Notes under the pieces: generated by a model | Seen by the model: only the letters and a program-made list of their open reading frames with translations | Told to the model about the DNA's origin: nothing | The model's database searches: none | NCBI GenBank assembly: GCA_036003705.1 | Contig: DASYSE010000102.1 | Coordinates: 4,965 to 68,964 of the forward strand | Source of the DNA: Actinomycetes bacterium | Lineage (GTDB): Bacteria; Actinomycetota; CALGFH01 | Direction of reading: 5' to 3' | Length of the DNA stretch: 64,000 bases | Position numbers and translations under genes: made by a program | In this document: positions 20,855 through 55,598 of the stretch, in pieces | How the letters are laid out: each line of letters opens with the position of its first letter | How positions within the stretch are numbered: the first letter of the stretch is position 1

Positions 20855-21124
20855 GTGTGGATTCTCTCCCTTCTGCTGAGCTTGTACTGGCTGATCCTTC
20901 TCGGCCGGATCGTGATGGATCTGATCCTGAGCCTGACCGGTGGCCGGGGACTGGCCGGTTTGGCGATCCTGTATGGAATACTGTATGACTTGACCGAACC
21001 CGTCCTCCGACCCATCAGGCGACTCCTTCCCCCCTTGCGAGTCGGCGCTGTGGCCCTAGATCTCTCCCCCCTCATCGTGTTCGTACTGATCGCCCTGTTG
21101 AGACAGGTGGTGAGTACCAGCTAG
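20855..21124 (+). CDS. yggT: YggT/YlmG-family small membrane protein
   Basis: 90-aa two-TM protein (VWILSLLLSLYWLILLGRIVMDLI...) at the conserved position between sepF and divIVA. In-frame GTG 14 nt after the sepF stop. Confidence 0.7.
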   Translation: MWILSLLLSLYWLILLGRIVMDLILSLTGGRGLAGLAILYGILYDLTEPVLRPIRRLLPPLRVGAVALDLSPLIVFVLIALLRQVVSTS

Positions 21125-21195
21125 CCGGCCCAACGCGAACGCTCGAGTGGTGCTCGGGTACAATCGCCCATCCACTTGCAGGTTAAGGAGCGCAG

Positions 21196-22128
21196 ATGCC
21201 GCCACTGACGCCGCTGGACATCCAACACAAAGAATTCACCAAGGCCATGCGCGGGTACGCCATGCACGAGGTGGACACCTTCCTCGATCAGGTCACCGAG
21301 GAGTTCACTCGGATGCAGGACGAGATCGCCCGCCTCCGGGAGCAGGCTTCCAGCACGACGCCGTCGCAGCCCGCCCCGGTGCAGGTGCAGCAGGCCCCGC
21401 CGCCTCCGCCCCCGCAGCCGGTGGCCGCCGAGCCGCGCAGTGCCGGTGGCGAGGAGGCGATCGCCCGGGCCCTGGTCATGGCCCAGCGGATGGCCGACCA
21501 GACGGTCGAGGAGGCCAAGGTCAAGGCCAAGTCGATGGTCGCCGAGGCCGAGGCGCGCGCCAAGAACATGACCGAGCAGGCGCAGATGCGCGCCCGCGAG
21601 GTCACCGAGGCCGCCCAGATGCGCGCCCGCGAGGTCACCGAGGCCGCTCAGATGCGCGCCCGCGAGGTCACCGAGGCCGCCCAGGCCAGGGCCCGCGAGC
21701 TCACCGAGGGCCTGGAGACCCGCTACAAGGAGCGGATCCAGTCGGCCGAGGCCCGCGCCCGCGTTGCCGAGGAGCAGGCCCGCATGCAGATCGCCCAGGC
21801 GACCGAGCAGGTGGCCAGGCGCCGTCAGGAGCTCGAGAGCTCCATCGAGGCACTGCGTGCGTTCGAGCGCGACTACCGCGCCCGGCTCCGCGGCTTCGTC
21901 GAGGGCCAGCTCAAGGCGCTCGAGGACGCGGCCCCGTCCGGGCCGGTCGCCCCACCGCAGCCGCCAGGCCTCGGCGGGAACTCGCGGCCCCTGCCCGGCG
22001 CCGACGACCTGCCGGCCCTGTCGACCGGGGCGCGCCAGAGCTCCTACTCGGCCCTGCGCGACTCGACCTCCGACCAGCTCGGCCACAACGGTCGCGACCG
22101 CGTCGACCGGCTGCGTCACGACGACTGA
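21196..22128 (+). CDS. divIVA: DivIVA/Wag31-family coiled-coil cell-pole/septum protein
   Basis: MPPLTPLDIQHKEFTKAMRGYAMHEVDTFLDQV is the lipid-binding DivIVA N-domain. It is followed by long coiled-coil regions. Confidence 0.9.
   Translation: MPPLTPLDIQHKEFTKAMRGYAMHEVDTFLDQVTEEFTRMQDEIARLREQASSTTPSQPAPVQVQQAPPPPPPQPVAAEPRSAGGEEAIARALVMAQRMADQTVEEAKVKAKSMVAEAEARAKNMTEQAQMRAREVTEAAQMRAREVTEAAQMRAREVTEAAQARARELTEGLETRYKERIQSAEARARVAEEQARMQIAQATEQVARRRQELESSIEALRAFERDYRARLRGFVEGQLKALEDAAPSGPVAPPQPPGLGGNSRPLPGADDLPALSTGARQSSYSALRDSTSDQLGHNGRDRVDRLRHDD
21580..21711 (+). repeat. 33-bp in-frame tandem repeat (3 near-perfect copies plus 1 degenerate) inside divIVA, encoding AQMRAREVTEA x3
   Basis: gcgcagatgcgcgcccgcgaggtcaccgaggcc repeated head-to-tail. 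Confidence 0.8.
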
Positions 22129-22161: not shown

Positions 22162-22320
22162 GTGGTCGCCGGCGCCCTGCTCGCCTTGGCCGTGGCCATG
22201 GGCCTGCTGGTTGCCTCGCTGTTCCGCGCCGACGGCCTGAGCTTCGTGTGGGCTTCGCTGGCAGTTGACGCGATCGCGGTCACGCTGCTGGTGGCGGCCC
22301 TTCGCCGGCGGGCCCGCTAG
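22162..22320 (+). CDS. Possible small hydrophobic protein (52 aa, 2 predicted TM segments). Speculative
   Basis: GTG-initiated ORF VVAGALLALAVAMGLLVASLFRADGLSFVWASLAVDAIAVTLLVAALRRRAR lies 33 nt after the divIVA stop. It is not in the ORF track (no ATG) and has no clear RBS. Confidence 0.25.
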   Translation: MVAGALLALAVAMGLLVASLFRADGLSFVWASLAVDAIAVTLLVAALRRRAR

Positions 22321-22478
22321 GCGCGCGGCCGTAGGCGCGCGCGGCCGGCGAAGTCGCCCTTGGCTGGCGAAGTCGTCCGGTCGGCCGGCCGGACCGAGGT
22401 CAAGGTGCCGTCGGTCGCGGCCACCTTGATCCCGAGCTTGCGGTGCAGCGGCGTCGCCGAGTCGTCGCGGTCCGCCAT
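22317..22478 (-). CDS. Small ORF (53 aa) translationally coupled to the upstream HExxH ORF (ATGA overlap). Its N-terminus (TPLHRKLGIK) resembles DUF3052-type proteins, so it may be a gene remnant
   Basis: ATG at 22478-22476 overlaps the TGA of the 22478..22933 ORF. The similarity call is from memory only. Confidence 0.3.
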   Translation of the reverse strand: MADRDDSATPLHRKLGIKVAATDGTLTSVRPADRTTSPAKGDFAGRARLRPRA

Positions 22479-22933
22479 CAGCCTCCCTCGGGCCGGTGGT
22501 CGCGCTCGTTGAGGGCGTCCTGGACGGCCGCGGCCGCCAGCGAGGCGGCCCGCTCGAACGGGTTGCGCCGATACCCTCGTATGCTGCCCAGCAGGTAGGC
22601 GGGGTAGTAGAACGGGCCCCAGCGCTCGTGCTGGGCGACGTGCTCCAGCTCGTGGGCGAGCAGGCGGTCGTCCAGGTGCCGGTTGGCCACGATCACGTGG
22701 CCGAGCGTGATGGCCTTGAACCCGCGCCAGCCGAGCAACCGGGCCAGCCCGCCGCGGCCGCCCTCGAACAGCAGCACCCCCCGCCAGCGCACCGGCCGCG
22801 TCCGGGTGGTGAGCGCCCCGACCAGCCCGACCAGGCTGTTCGGCCCGGCCCACAGATACCCCCACACCGACCGGGCCGCCGGCAGCAGGTCCCCCAGGTC
22901 GTCGACGCGCACCGGCCGTGCCCGCCCGGTCAC
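22478..22933 (-). CDS. 151-aa protein with an HExxH motif (putative zincin-like metallopeptidase/hydrolase). The start overlaps the ileS stop
   Basis: AHELEHVAQHERWGPFYYPAYLL. Its GTG start codon (22933-22931) overlaps the ileS stop codon (22932-22930), so it is probably co-transcribed and co-translated with ileS. Confidence 0.5.
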   Translation of the reverse strand: MTGRARPVRVDDLGDLLPAARSVWGYLWAGPNSLVGLVGALTTRTRPVRWRGVLLFEGGRGGLARLLGWRGFKAITLGHVIVANRHLDDRLLAHELEHVAQHERWGPFYYPAYLLGSIRGYRRNPFERAASLAAAAVQDALNERDHRPEGG

Positions 22934-25900
22934 CGCTCCTCGGTCACCGGGCGCAGCCAGAGGCGGACCGGCTGGCCGTCCAGGTCGACCCGGGCGTCAT
23001 GACCGTCGCCCTGGGGGGCGCGGTGCAGGCTGGTCGCGAGGGTCTCGCCGAGCAGGTAGTCGCGGTGGGCGTCGACCGCGGCCGCGACCTCGCCGTCGGC
23101 CCTGACGGCCAGCTCGATCCGGTCGTCCACCGCCAGCCCGGCCGCCTTGCGGAGGTCCTGCACGGCCCGGACCAGGTCCCTGGCCAGTCCCTCGAGGCGC
23201 AGCTCGGGCGAGACCTCCAGGTCGAGGGCGACCGCGGTGGCGCCGTCGCGGACCACCCGCCAGCCGGTCACCGGCTCCTCGACCACCGCGACCTCCTCCG
23301 GGGCGAGCTCGACCACGCCCAGTCCCTCCACGACCAGCTCGACCCGCTGGCCGGCCCGCAGCCTCGGGGCCAGCCGGCCCGCCAGCTCGGCCGGCGCCTG
23401 GCGCATCGCGGCGGCCACCGCCTGGGCGTCGCGCCCGAAGCGGGGGCCAAGGGCCCGGAAGTTCGGCGCCAGCCGGTAGGCGACCAGCCCGACCTCGCCC
23501 TGCGCGAACCCGACCTGCTTGACGTTGAGCTCGGCCGCGACCAGGTCGAGCAGCCCGGCCACCCCCTCCCTGACCCGGTCGGGCACGCTGATCAGCGCCC
23601 TGGCCAGGGGCTGGCGTACCTTGAGCCTGGCCTCGGTGCGGGCCTGGCGGCCAAGGCCGACCAGCCGCCTGACCTCGGTCATGGCGGCGCTCAGCGCCGG
23701 GTCGGCCGCGGCCCGGTCGGGCTCCGGCCAGTCGACCAGGTGGACCGAGTCCGCCGCCTCCGGGTCGACCGAGACCACCAGCCCCTGCCACAGCGCCTCG
23801 GCGGTGAACGGCGCATACGGCGCCAGCAGCAACGAGACCGTCCGCAGGCAGGTCCACAGGGTTCGGAAGGCGGCGTCGGCGTCGCTGCCGGTACCCCGCC
23901 AGAACCGCCGCCGCGACAGCCGCACGTACCAGTTGGAGAGGTCGTCGACGAACCCGGCCAGCCGCCGGGCGGCGCTGGTGGCGTCGTAGTCGTCCAGGTT
24001 CCGGGTGACCTGCTCCACCGTGTCGGCCAGCTCGGCCAGCACCCACCGATCGAGCGCCGAGGTCGGGGCTCCGGCGGCGGAGCGGGTGGGGTCGAACTCT
24101 TCCAGACGGGCGTACAGCGCGAAGAAGCTGTAGGTGTTCCACAAGGTGAGGAAGAACGACCTGGTGACGTCCTCGATGGCCTCGGGGAACAGGCGCCGCG
24201 ACACCCACGGCGACCCGGTGGCCAGCATGAACCAGCGCATCGGGTCGGCACCGTAGCGGTCCAGCAGCTGGATTGGGTCGAGCACGTTGCCGAGGCTCTT
24301 CGACATCTTGCGGCCGTCGCGGTCGACGATGTGCCCCAGGCAGACCACGTTCCGGTAGGACGTCTGGTCGAACAGCAGCGTGCTCACCGCCAGCAGGGAG
24401 TAGAACCACCCGCGGGTCTGGTCGATGGCCTCGGAGATGAAGTCGGCCGGGAACGCGCGCTCGAAGGCGGCCCGGCTGTCCGGGGCGTGCGGGTAGCCCC
24501 ACTGGGCGAACGGCATCGACCCGGAGTCGAACCAGGCGTCGAGCACGTCGGGGACCCGGCGGGCCTCCTGCCCGCAGTCCGGGCAGGCCAAGCGCACCTC
24601 GTCCACGAACGGCCGGTGCGGGTCGAGGCCGGACAGGTCGCGGCCGGCCTTCGCCGACAGGTCGGCCAGGCTCTCGACCACGGTCACGTGCCCGTCCGCG
24701 CAGCGCCACAACGGCAGCGGGGTGCCCCAGTAGCGGGCCCTGGACAGCGCCCAGTCGACGTTGTTGGCCAGCCAGTCGCCGAAGCGGCCGTCGCGGATGT
24801 GCTCGGGGCGCCAGCCGATGCGGGCGTTCTCGTCCAGCAGCCGGTCCTTGACCGCCGTCGTCCTGGCGTACCAGGAGGTCAGCGCGTAGTAGATCAGCGG
24901 GGTCGAGCAGCGCCAGCAGAACGGGTAGGCGTGCCGGTGGGTCTCGGCCCGCCACAGCAGCCCCCGCCGGCGCAGGTCCTCGACCAGGTCCGGGTCGGCG
25001 TCCTTGACGAACCTGCCGGCCAGCCAGCCGCTCTCCGGGCCGAAGCGGCCGTCGAGGCCGACCGGGTGGAGCACCGGGGTGTTGTAGCGCTGGCCCACGG
25101 CCAGGTCCTCGGCGCCGTAGGCCGGCGAGGTCTGGACCAGGCCCGACCCGTCGCTGGTGGTGACGTAGTCGTCGGCCACCACCGTCCAGCCCCGGGCCGC
25201 CTCCTCGTCGGTCACCGGGACCAGGTCGAAGGCGCGCCGGTAGCGGGTGCCGAGCAGCTCCTGGAGGGGCACCGGCCGCAGCACCCGGGCGTCCTCGCCG
25301 ACCGCCTTGGCGACCAGGTCCCTGGCCACCACCAGCTTGCGGGCCCTCCCGTCCTGGCCGGTCGCCTCCACCAGGACGTACTGGATATGGGGGCCGACCA
25401 CCACCGACACGTTGGGGACCAGCGTCCACGGCTGGGTCGTCCAGACCAGCAGGGCCGCGCCCTCCTCGGCCAGGGTGCCGGTGGTCGCCGGCAGGGCGAC
25501 GTAGGCGGTGAGGTCCTCGACCTCCTCGTAGCCCATCGCCACCTCGGCGTCCGACAGCGTCGTCTCGCAGCGAGGGCAGTAGGGAGAGACCTTGTAGTCC
25601 TCGACCAGCAGGCCGCGGCGGTACAGCTCGGCCAGGGCCCACCAGACGCTCTCGACGTAGGAGGTGTCCATCGTCCGGTAGGCCTGGCTGGTGTCGATCC
25701 AGAAGCCGATCCGCTCGGTGAGGCGCTCGAAGGCGTCGACGTAGCGCTCGACCGACTCGCGGCAGCGGGCGTTGAACGCCTCCACCCCGAACGCCTCGAT
25801 CGCGCGCTTGTCCTGGAGGCCGAGTTCCTTCTCGACCTCCAGCTCGACCGGCAGGCCGTGGCAGTCCCAGCCGCCCTTGCGGTCGACCCGGTAGCCGCGC

Positions 25901-26127
25901 ATCGTCTTGAAGCGCGGGAACAGGTCCTTGAAGACCCGCGCCTCCACGTGGTGCACGCCGGGCCGGCCGTTGGCGGTCGGCGGCCCCTCGTAGAAGACGA
26001 ACGGCTCGGCCCCGACCCGCTGATCGACGGAGCGCTGGAACACCTTCCGGTCGCGCCACAGCTCCAGCATCCTGGCGTCGAGCGCTGGGAGGTCGAGGTT
26101 GGGGTCGACCTCGGGGAACCGGCCCAT
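22930..26127 (-). CDS. ileS: Isoleucine--tRNA ligase (type 2, eukaryote/actinobacterial-like, no C-terminal zinc finger)
   Basis: HIGH-class motif PGVHHV, KMSKS motif KMSKSLGN, and CP1 editing domain. ATG at 26127 with GAAGGAG RBS. The track's 26241 start extends into the leader. Confidence 0.95.
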   Translation of the reverse strand: MGRFPEVDPNLDLPALDARMLELWRDRKVFQRSVDQRVGAEPFVFYEGPPTANGRPGVHHVEARVFKDLFPRFKTMRGYRVDRKGGWDCHGLPVELEVEKELGLQDKRAIEAFGVEAFNARCRESVERYVDAFERLTERIGFWIDTSQAYRTMDTSYVESVWWALAELYRRGLLVEDYKVSPYCPRCETTLSDAEVAMGYEEVEDLTAYVALPATTGTLAEEGAALLVWTTQPWTLVPNVSVVVGPHIQYVLVEATGQDGRARKLVVARDLVAKAVGEDARVLRPVPLQELLGTRYRRAFDLVPVTDEEAARGWTVVADDYVTTSDGSGLVQTSPAYGAEDLAVGQRYNTPVLHPVGLDGRFGPESGWLAGRFVKDADPDLVEDLRRRGLLWRAETHRHAYPFCWRCSTPLIYYALTSWYARTTAVKDRLLDENARIGWRPEHIRDGRFGDWLANNVDWALSRARYWGTPLPLWRCADGHVTVVESLADLSAKAGRDLSGLDPHRPFVDEVRLACPDCGQEARRVPDVLDAWFDSGSMPFAQWGYPHAPDSRAAFERAFPADFISEAIDQTRGWFYSLLAVSTLLFDQTSYRNVVCLGHIVDRDGRKMSKSLGNVLDPIQLLDRYGADPMRWFMLATGSPWVSRRLFPEAIEDVTRSFFLTLWNTYSFFALYARLEEFDPTRSAAGAPTSALDRWVLAELADTVEQVTRNLDDYDATSAARRLAGFVDDLSNWYVRLSRRRFWRGTGSDADAAFRTLWTCLRTVSLLLAPYAPFTAEALWQGLVVSVDPEAADSVHLVDWPEPDRAAADPALSAAMTEVRRLVGLGRQARTEARLKVRQPLARALISVPDRVREGVAGLLDLVAAELNVKQVGFAQGEVGLVAYRLAPNFRALGPRFGRDAQAVAAAMRQAPAELAGRLAPRLRAGQRVELVVEGLGVVELAPEEVAVVEEPVTGWRVVRDGATAVALDLEVSPELRLEGLARDLVRAVQDLRKAAGLAVDDRIELAVRADGEVAAAVDAHRDYLLGETLATSLHRAPQGDGHDARVDLDGQPVRLWLRPVTEER

Positions 26128-26485
26128 CTGCTGATCGTCTCCTTCGCGCGACGTTGCCCTGGCGAAGGGACGAGGCCATGAGCCCCGCGGTACCACCCCT
26201 CGTGCCGGCAGCCTCGCGACCACCGACCGCTCGCCGGCCACCGGGTTGCAGTGGTCCGTCAGCTGTCACGGGCTGACCCGGCTGCGTCTACTGGGCGGTG
26301 GCCCGCCGTTCGGGCAGCGGCTCGGGGAGGATGTTCGAGAGGCGCCGTGCCACCGGGCTTCCACCATCCCCGGCTCGCTGGCGGCCGTGCCGCCCCCTAC
26401 TCGTTCCCGTCATCGCCTGTACCCCGAGTCTACCTCGCCCCCGCAATCGGTTTGGCTATGATGCCAATGCAGCTGCCGCCTTCCG
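26128..26485 (-). promoter_or_regulatory. T-box riboswitch leader of ileS (Ile specifier), with an ultrashort Stem I and an SD-sequestering expression platform
   Basis: The reverse-strand RNA contains the T-box motif GGGUGGUACCGCGG (complement of 26185-26198). Upstream is a hairpin UUGGC-AUCAUA-GCCAA whose loop carries AUC (Ile codon) followed by a purine (complement of ~26449-26469). The segment CUCGUCCCUUCGCC can pair with CGAAGGAGACG, which covers the ileS SD. Confidence 0.75.
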
Positions 26486-26557: not shown

Positions 26558-26995
26558 ATGGCACGCAAGAAGACCGCTGGGACCGGGGCCGAGCCGGCGC
26601 CGCGCCGGCGCGGCCACCGCTCGCTGGTCACCAAACGAGACCTCGCTTCCTACCGCAGACGGCTGGAGGCCGAGCTGGCCGAGCTGAACGGCCAGCGGGC
26701 CGACCTGGAGGAGTCGACCGGCGCGAGCATGGCCGACGCCACCGGCGAGGTCGGCTTCGACGAGGAGTACGCCGACGCCGGCAGCTTCACCTTCGAACGC
26801 GAGCGCGACCTGTCGCTGGTCGACAACGTCAAGGACCTGATCGACAAGGTCGAGCGCGCGCTGACCCGGATCGGCGACGGCAGCTACGGCCGCTGCGAGG
26901 CCTGCGGCGACGCCATCGAGGCCGAACGGCTGGACGCCCTGCCCTACACCACCCTGTGCCTGGCCGACGCCCGCCGGCGGGTCCGCCCGCGGTGA
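26558..26995 (+). CDS. DksA/TraR-family zinc-finger protein (C4-type, here CxxC-x17-C-x2-D)
   Basis: Coiled-coil N-region plus CEACGDAIEAERLDALPYTTLCLAD. Divergent from ileS. The same position is occupied by a DksA-like gene in Streptomyces-type gene order. Confidence 0.7.
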   Translation: MARKKTAGTGAEPAPRRRGHRSLVTKRDLASYRRRLEAELAELNGQRADLEESTGASMADATGEVGFDEEYADAGSFTFERERDLSLVDNVKDLIDKVERALTRIGDGSYGRCEACGDAIEAERLDALPYTTLCLADARRRVRPR

Positions 26996-27519
26996 GCGGC
27001 GCTCCACGAGCCAGGCGTGTGCTGGCCGTGTACGGCACCGCCGTTGCCGTGCTCGCGGTGGACCAGCTCATCAAGCACCTGGTGGTCAGCAACCTGGCCG
27101 GCCGCCCGCCGGTCGGCGTGATCGGCACCTTCGTCGAGCTGCGCTACACCACCAACTCCGGCGGCGCCTTCTCGCTGCTCACCGGCGCCCCGCTGTTCTT
27201 CGGAGTGATGGCCATCGTGATCATCGGCGGGATCGTCTACGCCTCCCGCCGCACCCAGCCGCTGTCGATGCTGATGGTCCTCGGGCTGATCCTGGGCGGG
27301 GCGCTCGGCAACCTGGCCGACCGGCTGTTCCGGGGCGATGGCCTGCTCCGCGGCGAGGTGGTCGACTTCGTCAAGGTCGGCATCTGGCCGGTGTTCAACC
27401 TCGCCGACTCCTGCATCGTGGTCGGCGGCCTGCTCCTGGCCATCTTCCTCGGCCGTGCCGAACGCCAGCACGACCAGACCCCGGTCGACACCTCCCCCCG
27501 CCCGCTCGACCCCCCGTGA
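26992..27519 (+). CDS. lspA: Lipoprotein signal peptidase (signal peptidase II)
   Basis: Four TM segments and LspA motifs (FVELRYTTNSGGAFSLL, LGNLADRL, VVDFV, FNLADSCIVVG). The GTG at 26992 overlaps the upstream stop (GTGA). The track ORF 26251..27519 is a frame fusion. Confidence 0.85.
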   Translation: MSGAPRARRVLAVYGTAVAVLAVDQLIKHLVVSNLAGRPPVGVIGTFVELRYTTNSGGAFSLLTGAPLFFGVMAIVIIGGIVYASRRTQPLSMLMVLGLILGGALGNLADRLFRGDGLLRGEVVDFVKVGIWPVFNLADSCIVVGGLLLAIFLGRAERQHDQTPVDTSPRPLDPP

Positions 27520-28466
27520 GCTCACCACCCACCCCGGACGCCGGCGAGGCGGTGGCCGGGACGGAGGTGGCCGGGCGGCGGTTGGACGAGGTGGTGGCCG
27601 AGCTGGCAGGGGTGTCGCGGGCGCGGGCGGCCCGCTGGGCCGAGGAGGGGCTGGTGGAGGTGGACGCTCGGCCCCGCCCCAAGTCGTACCGGCTGCGGGG
27701 AGGCGAGCGGCTGGCCTGGGCCCCGCCGACGGCCCCGCCACCCGGCGGCCCGGTCCCCGAGGACCTGCCGCTGGCCGTCCGCTACGAGGACGACCGGCTG
27801 CTGGTGGTGGCCAAGCCGGCCGGCCTGGTCGTCCACCCCGGCCCCGGGCACCCGACCGGCACCCTGGTCAACGCCCTGCTCGGCCGCGTGGGGACCCGCC
27901 TGCCGGCCGGCGGCACCGCCGACCGCCCAGGGATCGTCCATCGCCTGGACAAGGACACCTCCGGCCTGCTGCTGGTGGCCAAGGACGACGGCGCCCACCT
28001 GGCCCTGTCCCGCGACCTGGCCGCCCACCGGGTGGAGCGCCGCTATCTGGCCCTCGTCCAGGGACGCCTGCCCACCGAGACCGGCACCGTCGACGCGCCC
28101 GTCGGCCGCCACCCCCGCGACCGCAAGCGCATGGCCGTGGTCGCCAAGGGCGGCCGCCGCGCGGTCACCCACTGGCGGGTGCTGGAGACCTTCCCGGCCG
28201 TCCAGCTGGCCGAGGCGAGCCTGGAGACCGGCCGCACCCACCAGGTCCGGGTCCATCTGGCCTCCCTGCGCCACCCCCTGGTCGGCGACCGCACCTACGG
28301 CGCCGATCCCGTCCTGGCCGCCCGGCTGGGCGTCGCCCGCCCCTTCCTCCACGCCTGGCGCCTCGGCTTCCGCCACCCCACCGACGGCCACCAGGTCGAG
28401 CTCACCGACCCCCTCCCCGACGACCTCCAGCCGGTCCTGGACCGGCTCCGCGGCCCGACCGGCTAG
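27516..28466 (+). CDS. rluD: RluA-family 23S rRNA pseudouridine synthase (RluD-like), with an S4 domain
   Basis: An S4 RNA-binding N-domain, then HRLDKDTSGLLLVAKD (catalytic Asp motif) and HQVRVHLASLRHPLVGDRTYG. The GTG overlaps the lspA stop. Confidence 0.85.
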   Translation: MSSPPTPDAGEAVAGTEVAGRRLDEVVAELAGVSRARAARWAEEGLVEVDARPRPKSYRLRGGERLAWAPPTAPPPGGPVPEDLPLAVRYEDDRLLVVAKPAGLVVHPGPGHPTGTLVNALLGRVGTRLPAGGTADRPGIVHRLDKDTSGLLLVAKDDGAHLALSRDLAAHRVERRYLALVQGRLPTETGTVDAPVGRHPRDRKRMAVVAKGGRRAVTHWRVLETFPAVQLAEASLETGRTHQVRVHLASLRHPLVGDRTYGADPVLAARLGVARPFLHAWRLGFRHPTDGHQVELTDPLPDDLQPVLDRLRGPTG

Positions 28467-28681
28467 CAGGATCGGGGGCTCCCCGGCCACAAGCGCCTGA
28501 ACTGGCGATTCCCTCTGAAACCGTTGTGCCGTAACGATTTCGGACTTGCGGAGGTCGTTGCCTCCGACCCCGGTGGGGTGTAGGCTCCGACCGGAATTAC
28601 AGCCGTGTCATTTGTCCACAGGCTGTGGGAAACTCCGGTCCAGCGGGGTCAGAACCAAGCGGTAGGAGAGCAGCAGCAGTC

Positions 28682-31600
28682 ATGCCGGGCAGCTTCGCGC
28701 ACCTCCACGTGCACACCGAGTACTCGATGCTCGACGGGGCCGCCCGGGTCGACGACCTGTTCGCCGAGGCGGCCGGCATGGGCATGCCGGCGCTGGCCAT
28801 GACCGACCACGGCCAGCTGTTCGGGGCCGTCGACTTCTACCTCGCCGGCCAGAAGCACGGCGTCAAGCCCATCATCGGCATCGAGGCGTACCTGGCTCCC
28901 GGGTCCCGGTTCGAGAAGCAACGCCGCGACACCGCCGAGCCCTACAGCCACCTGACCCTGCTGGCCGAGAACCAGACCGGCTACGCCAACCTGCTGCGGC
29001 TGGTGTCGGCCGCCTCCCTCGAGGGCCACTTCTACAAGCCCCGCATGGACCGGGAGCTGTTCGAGCGCTACCACGATGGCCTGATCGCCACCTCCGGGTG
29101 CCTGGGCTCCGAGGTCAACCAGCGCCTGCTCAAGGGCGACCGGAAGGGGGCGGCCGCGACCCTTGCCGAGTTCCGCGACCTGTTCGGGGCCGGCAGCTAC
29201 TATGTCGAGCTGCACGACCACGGCCTGCCGGAGCAGCGCCGGGTCAACCCCGGCCTGATCGCGCTGGCTCGCGACCTCGACCTGCCGCTGCTGGCCGCCA
29301 ACGACCTGCACTACACCCGCAGGTCCGACGCCGCCCCCCACGAGGTGCTGCTCTGCATCCAGACCGGGGCGGTGCTGGCCGACCCCAAGCGGTTCAAGTT
29401 CGAGACCGAGGAGTTCTACCTCAAGTCCCCGGCCGAGATGCGCGCCCTGTTCGCCGACCATCCCGAGGCCTGCGACCACACCCTGGAGGTGGCCGAGCGC
29501 TGCAACGTGCAGCTCCGCTTCGGCGAGAACCTCCTGCCCCACTTCGACGTGCCGTCGGGCCACACCCTGGAGTCGTGGCTGCGGGCCGAGGTCGAGCGGG
29601 GCGCGGCCGAGCGCTACGGCGACTCGCCGGCGCCTGCGGTCCGCGACCGCCTCGACTACGAGCTGCGGGTCATCTCCGAGCTTGGCTTCGCCGGCTACTT
29701 CCTGATCGTGGCCGACCTGTGCCGCCACGCCCGCGAGCACGGCATCCGGGTCGGGCCGGGGCGGGGGAGCGCGGCCGGGTCATGCGTCTCCTACTGCCTG
29801 CGCGTCACCGACCTCGACCCGATCGCCTACGGGCTGATGTTCGAGCGGTTCCTCAATCCGGGCCGCAACGAGATGCCCGACATCGACCTGGACTTCGACG
29901 AGCGCCGGCGCGGCGACATGATCCGCTACGCCACCGAGAAGTACGGCGCCGACCACGTCGCCCAGATCGTCACCTTCTCCACCATCAAGGCCAAGCAGGC
30001 GATCCGCGACTCGGCCAGGGTGCTCGGGCTCCCCTACAAGCTCGGCGACGACCTGGCCAAGGCGATGCCGCCGCCGGTGCTCGGCAAGGAGCGCCCGCTC
30101 GGCGAGGCCTTCAAGCTCTCGGCCGAGCTGCGCGCGGCCCGCGACAACGACCCCGACGCCCGCCGGGTGCTGGACACCGCCGCCGGCCTGGAGGGTCTGC
30201 GGCGCCAGTGGGGGGTGCACGCGGCCGCGGTGGTGATCTCCCGCGACCCGCTGGTCGAGCAGGTCCCGATCATGAAGCGGGAAGCCGACGGGGCGATCAT
30301 CACCCAGTACGAGATGAACGGGGTGGCCAAGCTCGGGCTGCTCAAGATGGACTTCCTGGGCCTGCGCAACCTCACCGTGCTGGACGACACCCTGGTCCAT
30401 CTGCGGGCCAGGGGGGTCGACCTGGACCTTTCGGCGCTGCCCACCGACGACCAGGCGACCTTCAGGATGCTGCAGGCCGGCGACTCCGACGGCGTCTTCC
30501 AGATGGAGTCGGAGGGCATGCGGCGGCTGCTGCGCCAGCTCCGCCCCGACCGCTTCGAGGACATCGTCGCCCTGATCGCCCTGTACCGGCCTGGCCCCAT
30601 GGAGGAGATCCCCAACTACATCGCGGGCAAGCGCGACCCCAGCAAGGTCGCCCACCTGCACCCGCTGATGGAGGAGATCACCGCCGACACCAACGGGGTG
30701 CTGGTCTACCAGGAGCAGATCATCACCCTGCTGCAGAAGGTCGCCGGCTACACCGCCGGCGAGGCCGACCTGGTCCGCAAGGCGATCGGCAAGAAGATCG
30801 AGTCGCTGATGCGCAAGGAGGAGCCGCGCTTCCTGGCCGGCTGCCGCGAGAAGGGCCTGAGCCAGGACCAGGCCCAGACTCTGTGGCGGCTGATCCAGCC
30901 GTTCGCCGGCTACTCCTTCAACCGCGCCCACGCCGCCGGCTACGGCCTGGTCGCCTGGCAGACCGCCTACCTCAAGGCCCACCACCCGATCGAGTACATG
31001 GCGGCCCTGCTCACCAGCGTCAAGGACGACAAGGACGCCCGCCCCAAGTACCTCGGCAGCTGCCGGCGGATGGCCATCACCGTGCTGCCCCCCGACGTCA
31101 ACGAGTCGGACTCGGACTTCACCCCAGCCCTCCGGGGGCCCAGCGGGAACGGCGCCCCGGAGCGGCAGTCCAGCGGCGAGCGGGCAATCCGCTATGGCCT
31201 CAGCGCGGTGCGCAACGTCGGTGAGCAGGTGGTCGAGGCCATCATCGCGGCCAGGCGGGAGAAGGGCCGGTTCGTCGATTTCTTCGACTTCTGTGACAAG
31301 GTCGACATCGCGGTGCTCAACAAGCGGGTGATCGAGTCGCTGATCAAGGCCGGCGCGTTCGACTCGCTCGGCCTGCCACGGCGCGGCCTGTTCGAGGTCC
31401 ACGAGGTCGCCGTCGACCGGGTCACGGTCCGCAAGCGGGCCGAGGCGGCCGGCCAGTTCTCCCTGTTCGGGGGCCTGGCCGACGGCGAGGAGGCGGTGGT
31501 CGAGCCGCTGCCGGCGGTCGGCCGCGAGGAGTGGGACAAGTCCCAGCGGCTGGCGTTCGAGAAGGAGATGCTCGGCCAGTATGTCTCCGACCACCCGCTG

Positions 31601-32161
31601 CTCGGCCTGGAGCACGTGCTCCAGGCGACCGCCGACACCCAGCTGTCGTCGCTCGCCGAACGGTCCGACGGCGCGGTGGTGACGGTTGCCGGCATCCTGG
31701 CCAAGCTGACCAGGAAGTTCACCAAGCGGGGCGAGATCTACATCGTCGCCGACCTCGAGGATCTCGACGGCGGGGCCGAGTGCATCTTCTTCCCCCAGGT
31801 CTACCAGCAGCATCAGGGCATCCTGGTGCAGGACGCGGTGGTCGTCGTCAAGGCAAGGGTCGACGGCCGCGACGAGACCCCCAAGCTGATCGCCCTTGAG
31901 GTCAAGCCCCCCAACCTGGCCGACCCAGGCACCGCCCCGGTGGTGCTGAACCTCGAGGCCCGCTCCTGCAACGACGGCGTCGTCACCCGCATCAAGCACA
32001 TCCTCGGCTCCCACCGCGGCAAGTCGCCGGTCCACCTCCAGATCCGCGGCGCCCGCTCCACCATGGTCGTCCGCCTCGGCGACGAGTTCCGGGTCGACCC
32101 CCGCAACGGCCTCTACGCCGAGATCAAGGCCGAGCTGGGCCCCGACGCGCTCCTTACCTGA
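28682..32161 (+). CDS. dnaE: DNA polymerase III alpha subunit (DnaE1)
   Basis: PHP domain (FAHLHVHTEYSMLDGA), a polymerase core, and an OB-fold. ATG at 28682 after the GGTAGGAGAG RBS. Confidence 0.95.
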   Translation: MPGSFAHLHVHTEYSMLDGAARVDDLFAEAAGMGMPALAMTDHGQLFGAVDFYLAGQKHGVKPIIGIEAYLAPGSRFEKQRRDTAEPYSHLTLLAENQTGYANLLRLVSAASLEGHFYKPRMDRELFERYHDGLIATSGCLGSEVNQRLLKGDRKGAAATLAEFRDLFGAGSYYVELHDHGLPEQRRVNPGLIALARDLDLPLLAANDLHYTRRSDAAPHEVLLCIQTGAVLADPKRFKFETEEFYLKSPAEMRALFADHPEACDHTLEVAERCNVQLRFGENLLPHFDVPSGHTLESWLRAEVERGAAERYGDSPAPAVRDRLDYELRVISELGFAGYFLIVADLCRHAREHGIRVGPGRGSAAGSCVSYCLRVTDLDPIAYGLMFERFLNPGRNEMPDIDLDFDERRRGDMIRYATEKYGADHVAQIVTFSTIKAKQAIRDSARVLGLPYKLGDDLAKAMPPPVLGKERPLGEAFKLSAELRAARDNDPDARRVLDTAAGLEGLRRQWGVHAAAVVISRDPLVEQVPIMKREADGAIITQYEMNGVAKLGLLKMDFLGLRNLTVLDDTLVHLRARGVDLDLSALPTDDQATFRMLQAGDSDGVFQMESEGMRRLLRQLRPDRFEDIVALIALYRPGPMEEIPNYIAGKRDPSKVAHLHPLMEEITADTNGVLVYQEQIITLLQKVAGYTAGEADLVRKAIGKKIESLMRKEEPRFLAGCREKGLSQDQAQTLWRLIQPFAGYSFNRAHAAGYGLVAWQTAYLKAHHPIEYMAALLTSVKDDKDARPKYLGSCRRMAITVLPPDVNESDSDFTPALRGPSGNGAPERQSSGERAIRYGLSAVRNVGEQVVEAIIAARREKGRFVDFFDFCDKVDIAVLNKRVIESLIKAGAFDSLGLPRRGLFEVHEVAVDRVTVRKRAEAAGQFSLFGGLADGEEAVVEPLPAVGREEWDKSQRLAFEKEMLGQYVSDHPLLGLEHVLQATADTQLSSLAERSDGAVVTVAGILAKLTRKFTKRGEIYIVADLEDLDGGAECIFFPQVYQQHQGILVQDAVVVVKARVDGRDETPKLIALEVKPPNLADPGTAPVVLNLEARSCNDGVVTRIKHILGSHRGKSPVHLQIRGARSTMVVRLGDEFRVDPRNGLYAEIKAELGPDALLT

Positions 32162-55488: not shown

Positions 55489-55576
55489 TGGTGCCCGAGG
55501 CGGGACTCGAACCCGCACGCCCTTTCGGGCAATCGCTTTTGAGGCGATCGCGGTTGCCGTAATTACGCCACTCGGG
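55489..55576 (-). tRNA. tRNA-Leu (anticodon CAA), type II with a long variable arm, CCA encoded
   Basis: Reverse complement: GCCCGAG-UG-GCG...CGC, anticodon stem AUCGC/GCGAU with loop CU-CAA-AA, a long variable arm, T-arm GGGUUCGAGUCCC, and acceptor CUCGGGC-A-CCA. 88 nt. Confidence 0.85.
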
Positions 55577-55598
55577 CTCGCCAGAGGAGGGTAGCGGA

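Follow-up and report, generated by a model that had tools for sequence, protein, structure and literature searches.

The ileS locus

The window analysed here, which is the whole stretch of DNA with its length of 64 kb, carries an isoleucyl-tRNA synthetase gene on the minus strand, with the following coordinates.

22930 to 26127, minus strand: ileS coding sequence, 1065 aa, ATG at 26127-26125 (from translation)

The encoded protein contains the Pfam domains tRNA-synt_1 (5.5e-114), Anticodon_1 and DUF5915, corresponding to a class I tRNA-synthetase with an anticodon-binding domain. Over its first 213 aa, the protein shares 85% identity with the product of ileS in an Actinomycetota MAG from pasture soil (locus L001), and 60–67% identity with the products of many other actinobacterial ileS genes. 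Divergently transcribed from ileS is a DksA/TraR zinc-finger gene on the plus strand, with its start at 26558, so the two genes are separated by an intergenic region of 430 nt. The ileS leader extends from 26416 to 26135 (minus strand), upstream of the ATG at 26127. The sole tRNA identified in the window by the Rfam scan was Leu-CAA (55492-55577), and no tRNA-Ile gene was found within the 64 kb. The right-end sequence of the TnpB element was looked for across the window and was absent, and the search of the window for extra copies of the palindromic motif of the promoter region yielded only codon-biased matches with one mismatch.

Identification of the T-box leader

The Rfam T-box model (RF00230) matched the region upstream of ileS end to end (model positions 1–219 over 26422-26163, minus strand; 49.1 bits and an E-value of 1e-9 in a search of 701 nt), and every conserved T-box box was matched over the full length of the model. 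However, this score falls short of the gathering score of RF00230 (93), with a composition bias of 29.1 bits, and the model search proposed as a check in the preliminary description thus gave an ambiguous answer: significant by E-value but below the gathering score. A scan of the whole window with Rfam at the gathering threshold returned the tRNA alone, and the T-box surfaced only under an E-value threshold. When the relatives were scanned with RF00230, T-box matches were obtained in 11 of 19 loci and these also scored 35–62 bits. The sub-threshold score is therefore a property of the model and of G+C-rich leaders (73% G+C in the window leader), rather than a sign of decay. The folding energies of single pieces of the leader were no better than those of shuffled sequences (z −0.9 to +1.1); such z-scores are uninformative at this G+C content, so the structural support for the leader is comparative and not thermodynamic.

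The E-value obtained with RF00230, together with conservation and covariation in relatives, places the T-box as a whole far beyond chance. The initial proposal that ileS is preceded by a T-box leader was therefore borne out by the end-to-end alignment, the conserved boxes and the covariation. The T-box consensus was located on the minus strand, as proposed (GGGUGGUACCGCGG at 26198-26185, with a UGGU bulge), and all the strings quoted in the preliminary description were found on that strand, including CUCGUCCCUUCGCC at 26174-26161. Judging from the sequence, we consider the leader upstream of ileS to be a genuine tRNA-Ile T-box.

Stem I and the specifier codon

The alignment with RF00230 placed a complete set of Stem I elements upstream of Stem II.

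26320 to 26416, minus strand: long Stem I (RF00230 model positions 7–103)
26416 to 26410 with 26324 to 26320, minus strand: Stem I K-turn, GCGAUGA with CGAGC (model alignment)
26336 to 26329, minus strand: 3' side of the specifier loop, GAACAUCC (GAA-C-AUC-C), with AGUA on the 5' side (model alignment)
26330 to 26332, minus strand: specifier AUC (Ile), exactly at the RF00230 specifier positions
26379 to 26375, minus strand: AG bulge, AGCGA (model alignment)
26368 to 26358, minus strand: distal loop GAUGGUGGAAG, GGUG distal loop (model alignment)

The preliminary description had suggested an ultrashort Stem I. Instead, a full long Stem I (26416-26320) was aligned together with its distal motifs. 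This Stem I has a predicted K-turn and a specifier codon that matches the downstream gene (Ile), and the AG bulge and the distal loop, which match the motifs of the model, are predicted to form the platform for the tRNA elbow.

Comparative data supported this assignment. We took 80 ileS loci from reference genomes, and about 41 of these had GGTGGNACCGCG upstream of ileS; most of these reference leaders presented the same long Stem I, with GAA-N-AUC-A. The specifier ATC was invariant in the diverse long-Stem-I leaders (29 of 29) and in all 78 readable close relatives, each of which had the sequence GAA-N-AUC-C. In the set of 29 diverse leaders, compensatory changes were found in 12 of the 18 pairs predicted by RNAalifold, and 93.9% of the Stem I cells were paired, versus 81.1% in shuffles and 36–55% when the partners were slid. 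None of 500 shuffles reached the observed values for Stem I pairing, for pairs changed on both sides or for the covariation score, and the columns of the AG bulge and distal loop were invariant in the 29 leaders.

The base following the specifier departs from the T-box family, in which it is a purine: the window leader has C26329 in this position. A C was found at the same site in 4 of the 29 diverse leaders and in all 78 close-lineage leaders that could be read. In glyQS leaders, this purine is reported to be critical (PMC7583486). However, in an ileS T-box with Stem II, the requirement is relaxed and a pyrimidine in this position lowers binding just 2.4-fold (PMC7583486); given this small cost where Stem II is present, C26329 is plausible and not disabling. 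The presence of C throughout the lineage agrees with this biochemical evidence that Stem II relaxes the need for a purine. The 3' flank of Stem III also deviates from the described motif, AA: the window leader and about half of the lineage have AC, and the remainder have AA.

Stem II, pseudoknot, Stem III and T-box bulge

The region between Stem I and the start codon contains the other canonical elements of a T-box leader.

26281 to 26318, minus strand: Stem II with S-turn; lower helix GCUGC/GCAGC, internal loop CCGAAC and CAGUAGAC, upper helix GGCGG/CCGCC
26259 to 26280, minus strand: Stem IIA/B pseudoknot and F-box; IIA CGGG/CCCG, F-box CCCGUGA at 26272-26266
26276 to 26273 with 26262 to 26259, minus strand: IIB pairing, loop UCAG with CUGA (from covariation)
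26204 to 26232, minus strand: GAGCG purine motif and Stem III; Stem III at 26227-26204, loop GCGA
26166 to 26199, minus strand: T-box/antisequestrator; helix A1 GGGG/CCCU, helix A2 GCGGGGC/GCCUCGU, loop UCAUG (model positions 188–216)
26195 to 26189, minus strand: 7-nt bulge UGGUACC, with UGGU at 26195-26192

The whole structure was subjected to a pairing test with 51 distinct full-length leaders from the close lineage. The structure of the antisequestrator state was 95.5% paired in these relatives, versus 41–55% with slid partners, and 59 cells were changed on both sides, versus 25 in shuffles, a value reached by none of the 500 shuffles. Compensatory changes were found in Stem I and Stem II, as well as in the IIA/B pseudoknot. 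For the two helices of Stem II, pairing was 100% (helix 6) and 90% (helix 7); four pairs had changed on both sides, and the apical part varied in length. In the pseudoknot, the central IIB pair (columns 210/223) was C-G in 26 of the 51 leaders and A-U in 25, with no mismatches, and the same IIB covariation was observed in a sister clade. The helices of the GAGCG/Stem III region (10–11) were 86–100% paired, with two pairs changed on both sides, and helices A1 and A2 (12–13) were 100% and 99.7% paired in the 51 relatives.

The conserved T-box stretch AGGGGUGGUACCGCGGGGC (26200-26182) has the 5'-UGGN-3' sequence in its bulge, and the canonical antisequestrator fold alone has a free energy of −14.3 kcal/mol. 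The preliminary description had made its case dependent on pairing between this bulge and the acceptor end of the tRNA, and such pairing can be constructed, as UGGU is complementary to the ACCA 3' end. An A73 discriminator is assumed for tRNA-Ile.

Probable sequestration of the Shine-Dalgarno sequence

Two further features lie between the T-box and the ileS start codon.

26135 to 26173, minus strand: sequestrator helix, UCGUCCCUUCGC (26173-26162) with GCGAAGG-A-GACGA (26147-26135)
26138 to 26145, minus strand: Shine-Dalgarno (SD) sequence GAAGGAGA, core GGAG at 26142-26139

The 5' arm of the sequestrator includes the 3' strands of A2 and A1, which also make up the 3' side of the antisequestrator, so the two pairings are mutually exclusive. 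The minimum-free-energy fold contains the helix formed by CGUCCCUUCGC and GCGAAGG-A-GACG (12 bp, with one bulged A), and the sequestrator was recovered in the minimum-free-energy and centroid folds of both the discriminator region and the whole leader. Apart from the bulged A, the SD nucleotides are paired with a probability of about 1.0 in the ensemble, and the best fold with a free SD is less favourable by 7.8 kcal/mol. The gap of 11 nt from GGAG to the AUG is on the long side, and the SD is kept as GCGAAGGAGAC in relatives. No U-run is present in the sequence just 3' of the helix (GAUCAGCAGAUG), and the terminator scan of the leader returned no terminator-like site. The pairing of the antisequestrator 3' strand with CGAAGGAGACG (26146-26136, which includes the SD) and the lack of a U-tract terminator after the helix, both put forward in the preliminary description, were thus recovered, in the minimum-free-energy fold and by the empty terminator scan, respectively. 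An SD placed in an alternative helix, formed with the antisequestrator 3' strand and not followed by a U-tract, corresponds to the arrangement of translational (class II) T-boxes, and this combination fits translational control.

The sequestrator was 96.9% paired in the 51 close relatives. Its arms are nearly invariant within the close lineage and the helix therefore yields no covariation of its own; they are also constrained by T-box helices A1/A2 and by ribosome binding. In most of the 41 divergent leaders, the bases 3' of the T-box core are complementary to a purine-rich element preceding the start codon, despite differences in sequence (UCCGUCAGG/CCUGAUGGA, UCGAGUC/GACUCGA and UCAAC/GUUGA, for example). 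In 35 distinct divergent leaders, the arm extension had a mean energy of −9.2 kcal/mol with its own pre-start region, versus −6.9 kcal/mol with those of the other leaders; none of 10000 permutations reached the observed value in this test, which was uncorrected for relatedness among loci. In the window leader, the helix is essentially the conserved core, and the arm extension adds nothing in this comparison.

Putative promoter region and the upstream AUC hairpin

Two features located upstream of the leader were considered.

26427 to 26432, minus strand: −10-like hexamer TAGACT, putative ileS promoter (from conservation)
26452 to 26467, minus strand: hairpin UUGGC[AUCAUA]GCCAA, judged to lie outside the riboswitch, in the promoter region

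A metagenome exact-match scan with 33 nt of the distal part of Stem I returned 101 stretches, 80 of which were analysed as loci. Sequence conservation with the relatives starts just downstream of the −10-like hexamer. TAGACT, TACACT or a close variant was present in all 66 distinct upstream regions and, in 55 of these, it preceded the leader's conserved AGGC by 8–9 nt. The scan for a sigma-70 consensus found no promoter, so the promoter is assigned from conservation only, and ileS transcription would start at about 26421 ± 3.

The preliminary description had located the specifier in the terminal loop of the upstream hairpin. This hairpin exists at 26467-26452 and presents AUC followed by A, but we judge it not to be part of the riboswitch: it is not conserved, and the AUC aligned by the model (26332-26330) lies within the long Stem I. 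The hairpin lies 5' of the K-turn at a distance of 36 nt, upstream of the −10-like hexamer, and 134 nt separate it from Stem II. The closest genome relative, L001, is a near base-for-base match to the window over Stem I, Stem II and the T-box and has TACACT at the hexamer; upstream of the hexamer, it has nothing in common with the window and the hairpin is absent. No homologous hairpin was found among the other 65 distinct upstream regions from relatives. Many of these relatives have the start codon of their divergent gene where the window has the hairpin and the longer spacer. Of 2000 dinucleotide-shuffled versions of the intergenic region, 306 (15%) contained a hairpin with a stem of at least 5 bp and with AUC and a purine in the loop, and 38 of 200 shuffles folded as well as the hairpin itself (z −0.9). 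The upstream AUC hairpin is therefore not beyond chance, and its non-conservation, its chance-level frequency and its position upstream of the −10-like hexamer make it very unlikely to hold the specifier.

Proposed mechanism and alternative readings

We propose, with a probability of about 0.8, that the leader is a tRNA-Ile-responsive T-box in which the full canonical sensing architecture is coupled to a translational expression platform. The leader and its relatives show the motifs and their conservation, covariation in the helices of the sensor, and two pairings that exclude each other, and from these we infer the binding of tRNA, the switch, the start of transcription and a translational rather than transcriptional level of control. 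Translational control by SD sequestration is likely. By analogy with the family, tRNA-Ile would pair through its GAU anticodon with the AUC at 26332-26330, its elbow would be contacted by stacking of the distal motifs of Stem I, and the S-turn of Stem II would support the codon-anticodon duplex. An uncharged tRNA would pair through its 3' ACCA with UGGU (26195-26192) and stabilise the antisequestrator (26199-26166), leaving GAAGGAGA free and allowing ileS to be translated. With charged tRNA, or with no tRNA, the more stable sequestrator (26173-26135) would form and the SD would be hidden. The proposed switch corresponds to the standard scheme for translational T-boxes (PMC7583486, PMC7778990).

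A leader of the Mycobacterium type, with an ultrashort Stem I and the specifier AUC(A) in the loop of hairpin 26467-26452, is very improbable here. The hairpin does show AUC followed by A, and ultrashort Stem I leaders are real in actinobacterial ileS genes (fetched genomes; PMC7583486). The rule invoked in the preliminary description, that actinobacterial ileS leaders have an ultrashort Stem I, is true of Mycobacterium-type leaders, but it is not universal (PMC7583486). In the window, the space between the hairpin and Stem II is occupied by a complete long Stem I that has an AUC of its own, and the hairpin lacks K-turn flanks and is separated by 134 nt from Stem II, which genuine ultrashort hairpins abut. 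Furthermore, it is missing from L001, has no homologue in the other 65 distinct upstream regions, lies upstream of the conserved −10-like hexamer and has an equivalent in 15% of shuffles. It would also be highly surprising if the leader were a decayed, non-functional T-box remnant, as might be suspected from its score (49.1 bits versus a gathering score of 93), the C in place of the conserved purine and the AC in place of AA after Stem III. Every helix is kept, with compensatory changes, in the 51 close and 29 distant relatives, the 11 matches in relatives score in the same range (35–62 bits), and the C is fixed throughout the lineage, with a pyrimidine costing only 2.4-fold in the presence of Stem II (PMC7583486).

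The main alternative concerns the level of control: the same sensor could act mainly on transcription, or on both levels, with the sequestrator serving as an intrinsic terminator poor in U-tracts or as a pause site, and SD occlusion being secondary. We consider this unlikely, but we give it some weight because a long Stem I with elbow-binding motifs is typical of transcriptional T-boxes (PMC7583486) and because, in three sister leaders (L021, L028 and L034), the T-box 3' strand contributes to a perfect hairpin followed by a short U-run, with the SD outside. However, in the window leader, the sequence following the helix (GAUCAGCAGAUG) has no U-run, no terminator-like site was detected and the SD itself makes up the 3' arm. 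The hairpins of the sister leaders also fail the criterion of the terminator scan (L021 and L034 scanned), and a transcriptional reading of these two leaders is tentative. Sequestration of the SD in a translational T-box therefore remains our preferred reading for the window leader.

Implications

The main use of these results is for annotation, and correct coordinates for the specifier matter for predictions of tRNA pairing. The window leader and the leaders of all the relatives examined score below the gathering score, so they would be missed by pipelines applying it. The analysis adds a large soil-metagenome set, at least 60 distinct leaders, that joins a long Stem I to an apparently translational platform, a combination that is rare according to the literature. 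The understanding of the T-box mechanism is unchanged by the window leader. We see about an even chance that these leaders constitute a natural hybrid, in an abundant uncultured lineage of soil Actinomycetota, in which a full transcription-type sensor, with its long Stem I and elbow platform, is associated with an SD-sequestering platform and a fixed pyrimidine after the specifier, with sister leaders of the subfamily keeping a terminator-like hairpin. The expression platform would then have been exchanged recently without change in the sensor, and T-boxes that have Stem II would not need purine stacking in vivo.

Comparison with known T-box systems

Translational ileS T-box riboswitches from actinobacteria were reportedly the subject of work by Sherwood, Grundy and Henkin in 2015. 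The window leader resembles the ileS T-boxes of Mycobacterium tuberculosis and Nocardia farcinica (PMC7583486) in its downstream gene, AUC specifier and UGGU bulge, and it shares with them the S-turn of Stem II, the IIA/B pseudoknot and an antisequestrator/sequestrator switch that occludes the SD, in place of a U-tract terminator. However, in the M. tuberculosis and N. farcinica leaders, Stem I is short, its apical loop holds the specifier and the distal motifs that bind the elbow are missing, whereas Stem I of the window leader is full-length and comprises an internal specifier loop together with the AG bulge and the distal loop. Another difference is the base that follows the specifier, which is C in the window and A19 in the M. 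tuberculosis and N. farcinica T-boxes.

True ultrashort Stem I leaders upstream of ileS were identified in six of the fetched genomes, from Propionibacteriales and others (L017, L022, L031, L033, L046 and L076). Their Stem I, GAUGGGG[CCAUCA]CCCCGGAG, abuts Stem II, and there is no such form in the window, in which no apical-loop specifier adjoins Stem II. These six leaders and the window leader have the same T-box sequence, and several of the ultrashort leaders also have complementary arms containing the SD, most clearly L017, L031 and L033.

The whole sensing architecture of the window leader is like that of the Firmicutes leaders with a long Stem I and Stem II (RF00230; Bacillus tyrS/ileS type), with the K-turn, specifier loop, AG bulge, distal loop, Stem II, IIA/B with F-box, Stem III and T-box in the same order. 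Unlike the Firmicutes type, it has an SD-sequestering helix without a U-tract as its platform, rather than an intrinsic terminator, a G+C content of 73%, a score of only 49 bits and a pyrimidine in place of the purine after the specifier. Most translational T-boxes have an intermediate or ultrashort Stem I, but a few retain the canonical long Stem I (PMC7583486). The window leader falls into this long-Stem-I translational group and is an ordinary example of a class already described.

Specifier and start codon

On the 3' side of the specifier, where a purine is normally conserved, the ileS leader carries a C (C26329, reverse strand). This C is fixed throughout the close lineage (78 of the 78 readable leaders), and 4 members of a diverse set of 29 long-Stem-I ileS leaders share it. 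The minimum-free-energy fold pairs AUGGGCC (26121-26127, reverse strand), made up of the start codon and the four bases after it, with GGCUCAU (26178-26184, reverse strand), which comprises the 3' part of A2 and the loop of the antisequestrator. According to this model, the pairing would carry occlusion as far as the AUG. Comparison of the window with L001, the ileS locus of the closest genome relative, showed that the bases complementary to AUGGGCC are not conserved in the latter.

Promoter region and neighbouring features

The following features were annotated in the window:

26442-26456, reverse strand: conserved, often palindromic motif GGCAA-N5-TTGCC, in the form GCCAAACCGATTGCG, found at the equivalent position in the close-lineage soil-metagenome loci (L081-L160)
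26558-26995, forward strand: DksA/TraR C4 zinc-finger protein (3.8e-09), transcribed divergently from ileS
28625-32161, forward strand: DNA polymerase III alpha subunit, neighbour of ileS
55492-55577, reverse strand: tRNA with anticodon CAA (Leu) and a long variable arm (53.2 bits)

The motif lies upstream of the -10-like TAGACT and ends 8-9 nt from it, a position that places it across the -35 region. It may serve ileS and the divergent dksA/traR-like gene jointly, as an operator or as an unusual promoter element. The hairpin UUGGC[AUCAUA]GCCAA, in which the preliminary description had placed the specifier and which we judged to be outside the riboswitch, overlaps this motif with its 3' arm. 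The rest of the window contains no perfect copy of the palindromic motif. At the gathering threshold, the tRNA was the window's sole Rfam match, and no Pfam match was found for the ORFs at 27338-28534, 22317-22865 and 21121-22119.

Insertion between riboswitch and ileS in relatives

Eight related soil contigs from metagenomes have an insertion of about 1.39 kb (L114:2121-3506; L088, L097, L099, L108, L110, L132 and L155), the L099 copy being shorter (about 0.8 kb). In all eight, the junction falls exactly between the T-box-controlled Shine-Dalgarno (ending in GAAGGAGACGATCACCGG) and the ileS ATG. The insertion codes for a TnpB-like protein antisense to ileS (Pfam OrfB_IS605, 2.9e-23; Cas12f1-like_TNB, 4e-14). 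The ileS-side end brings a new Shine-Dalgarno-like GGAGAGGAAGCUAG immediately 5' of the ATG, so that in these eight genomes the riboswitch may no longer be coupled to ileS translation. The end downstream of the tnpB stop adjoins the sequestrator arm. The end sequence of the element was not found across the window.

Variation among related leaders

Three of the four ileS leaders from Nitriliruptor and Nitriliruptoraceae MAGs (L027, L038 and L071) have UGGG rather than UGGU in the T-box bulge, which would imply a different discriminator base in tRNA-Ile, or wobble pairing; the fourth (L008) keeps UGGU. The post-T-box hairpin includes no obvious Shine-Dalgarno in any of the four.

In three leaders from genome relatives belonging to the same T-box subfamily, the 3' strand of the T-box forms a perfect hairpin with a short U-run behind it (GUUUUCGCGUU in L021):

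L021:1440-1480
L028:1450-1490
L034:1445-1490

These hairpins were not called in a terminator scan of the sister leaders L021 and L034. The Shine-Dalgarno is located 3' of the hairpin, and thus outside it, in L021, L028 and L034, whereas it lies within the helix in the window, L001 and L003 (another relative's ileS locus). This difference suggests that a swap of expression platform took place inside a single T-box subfamily.
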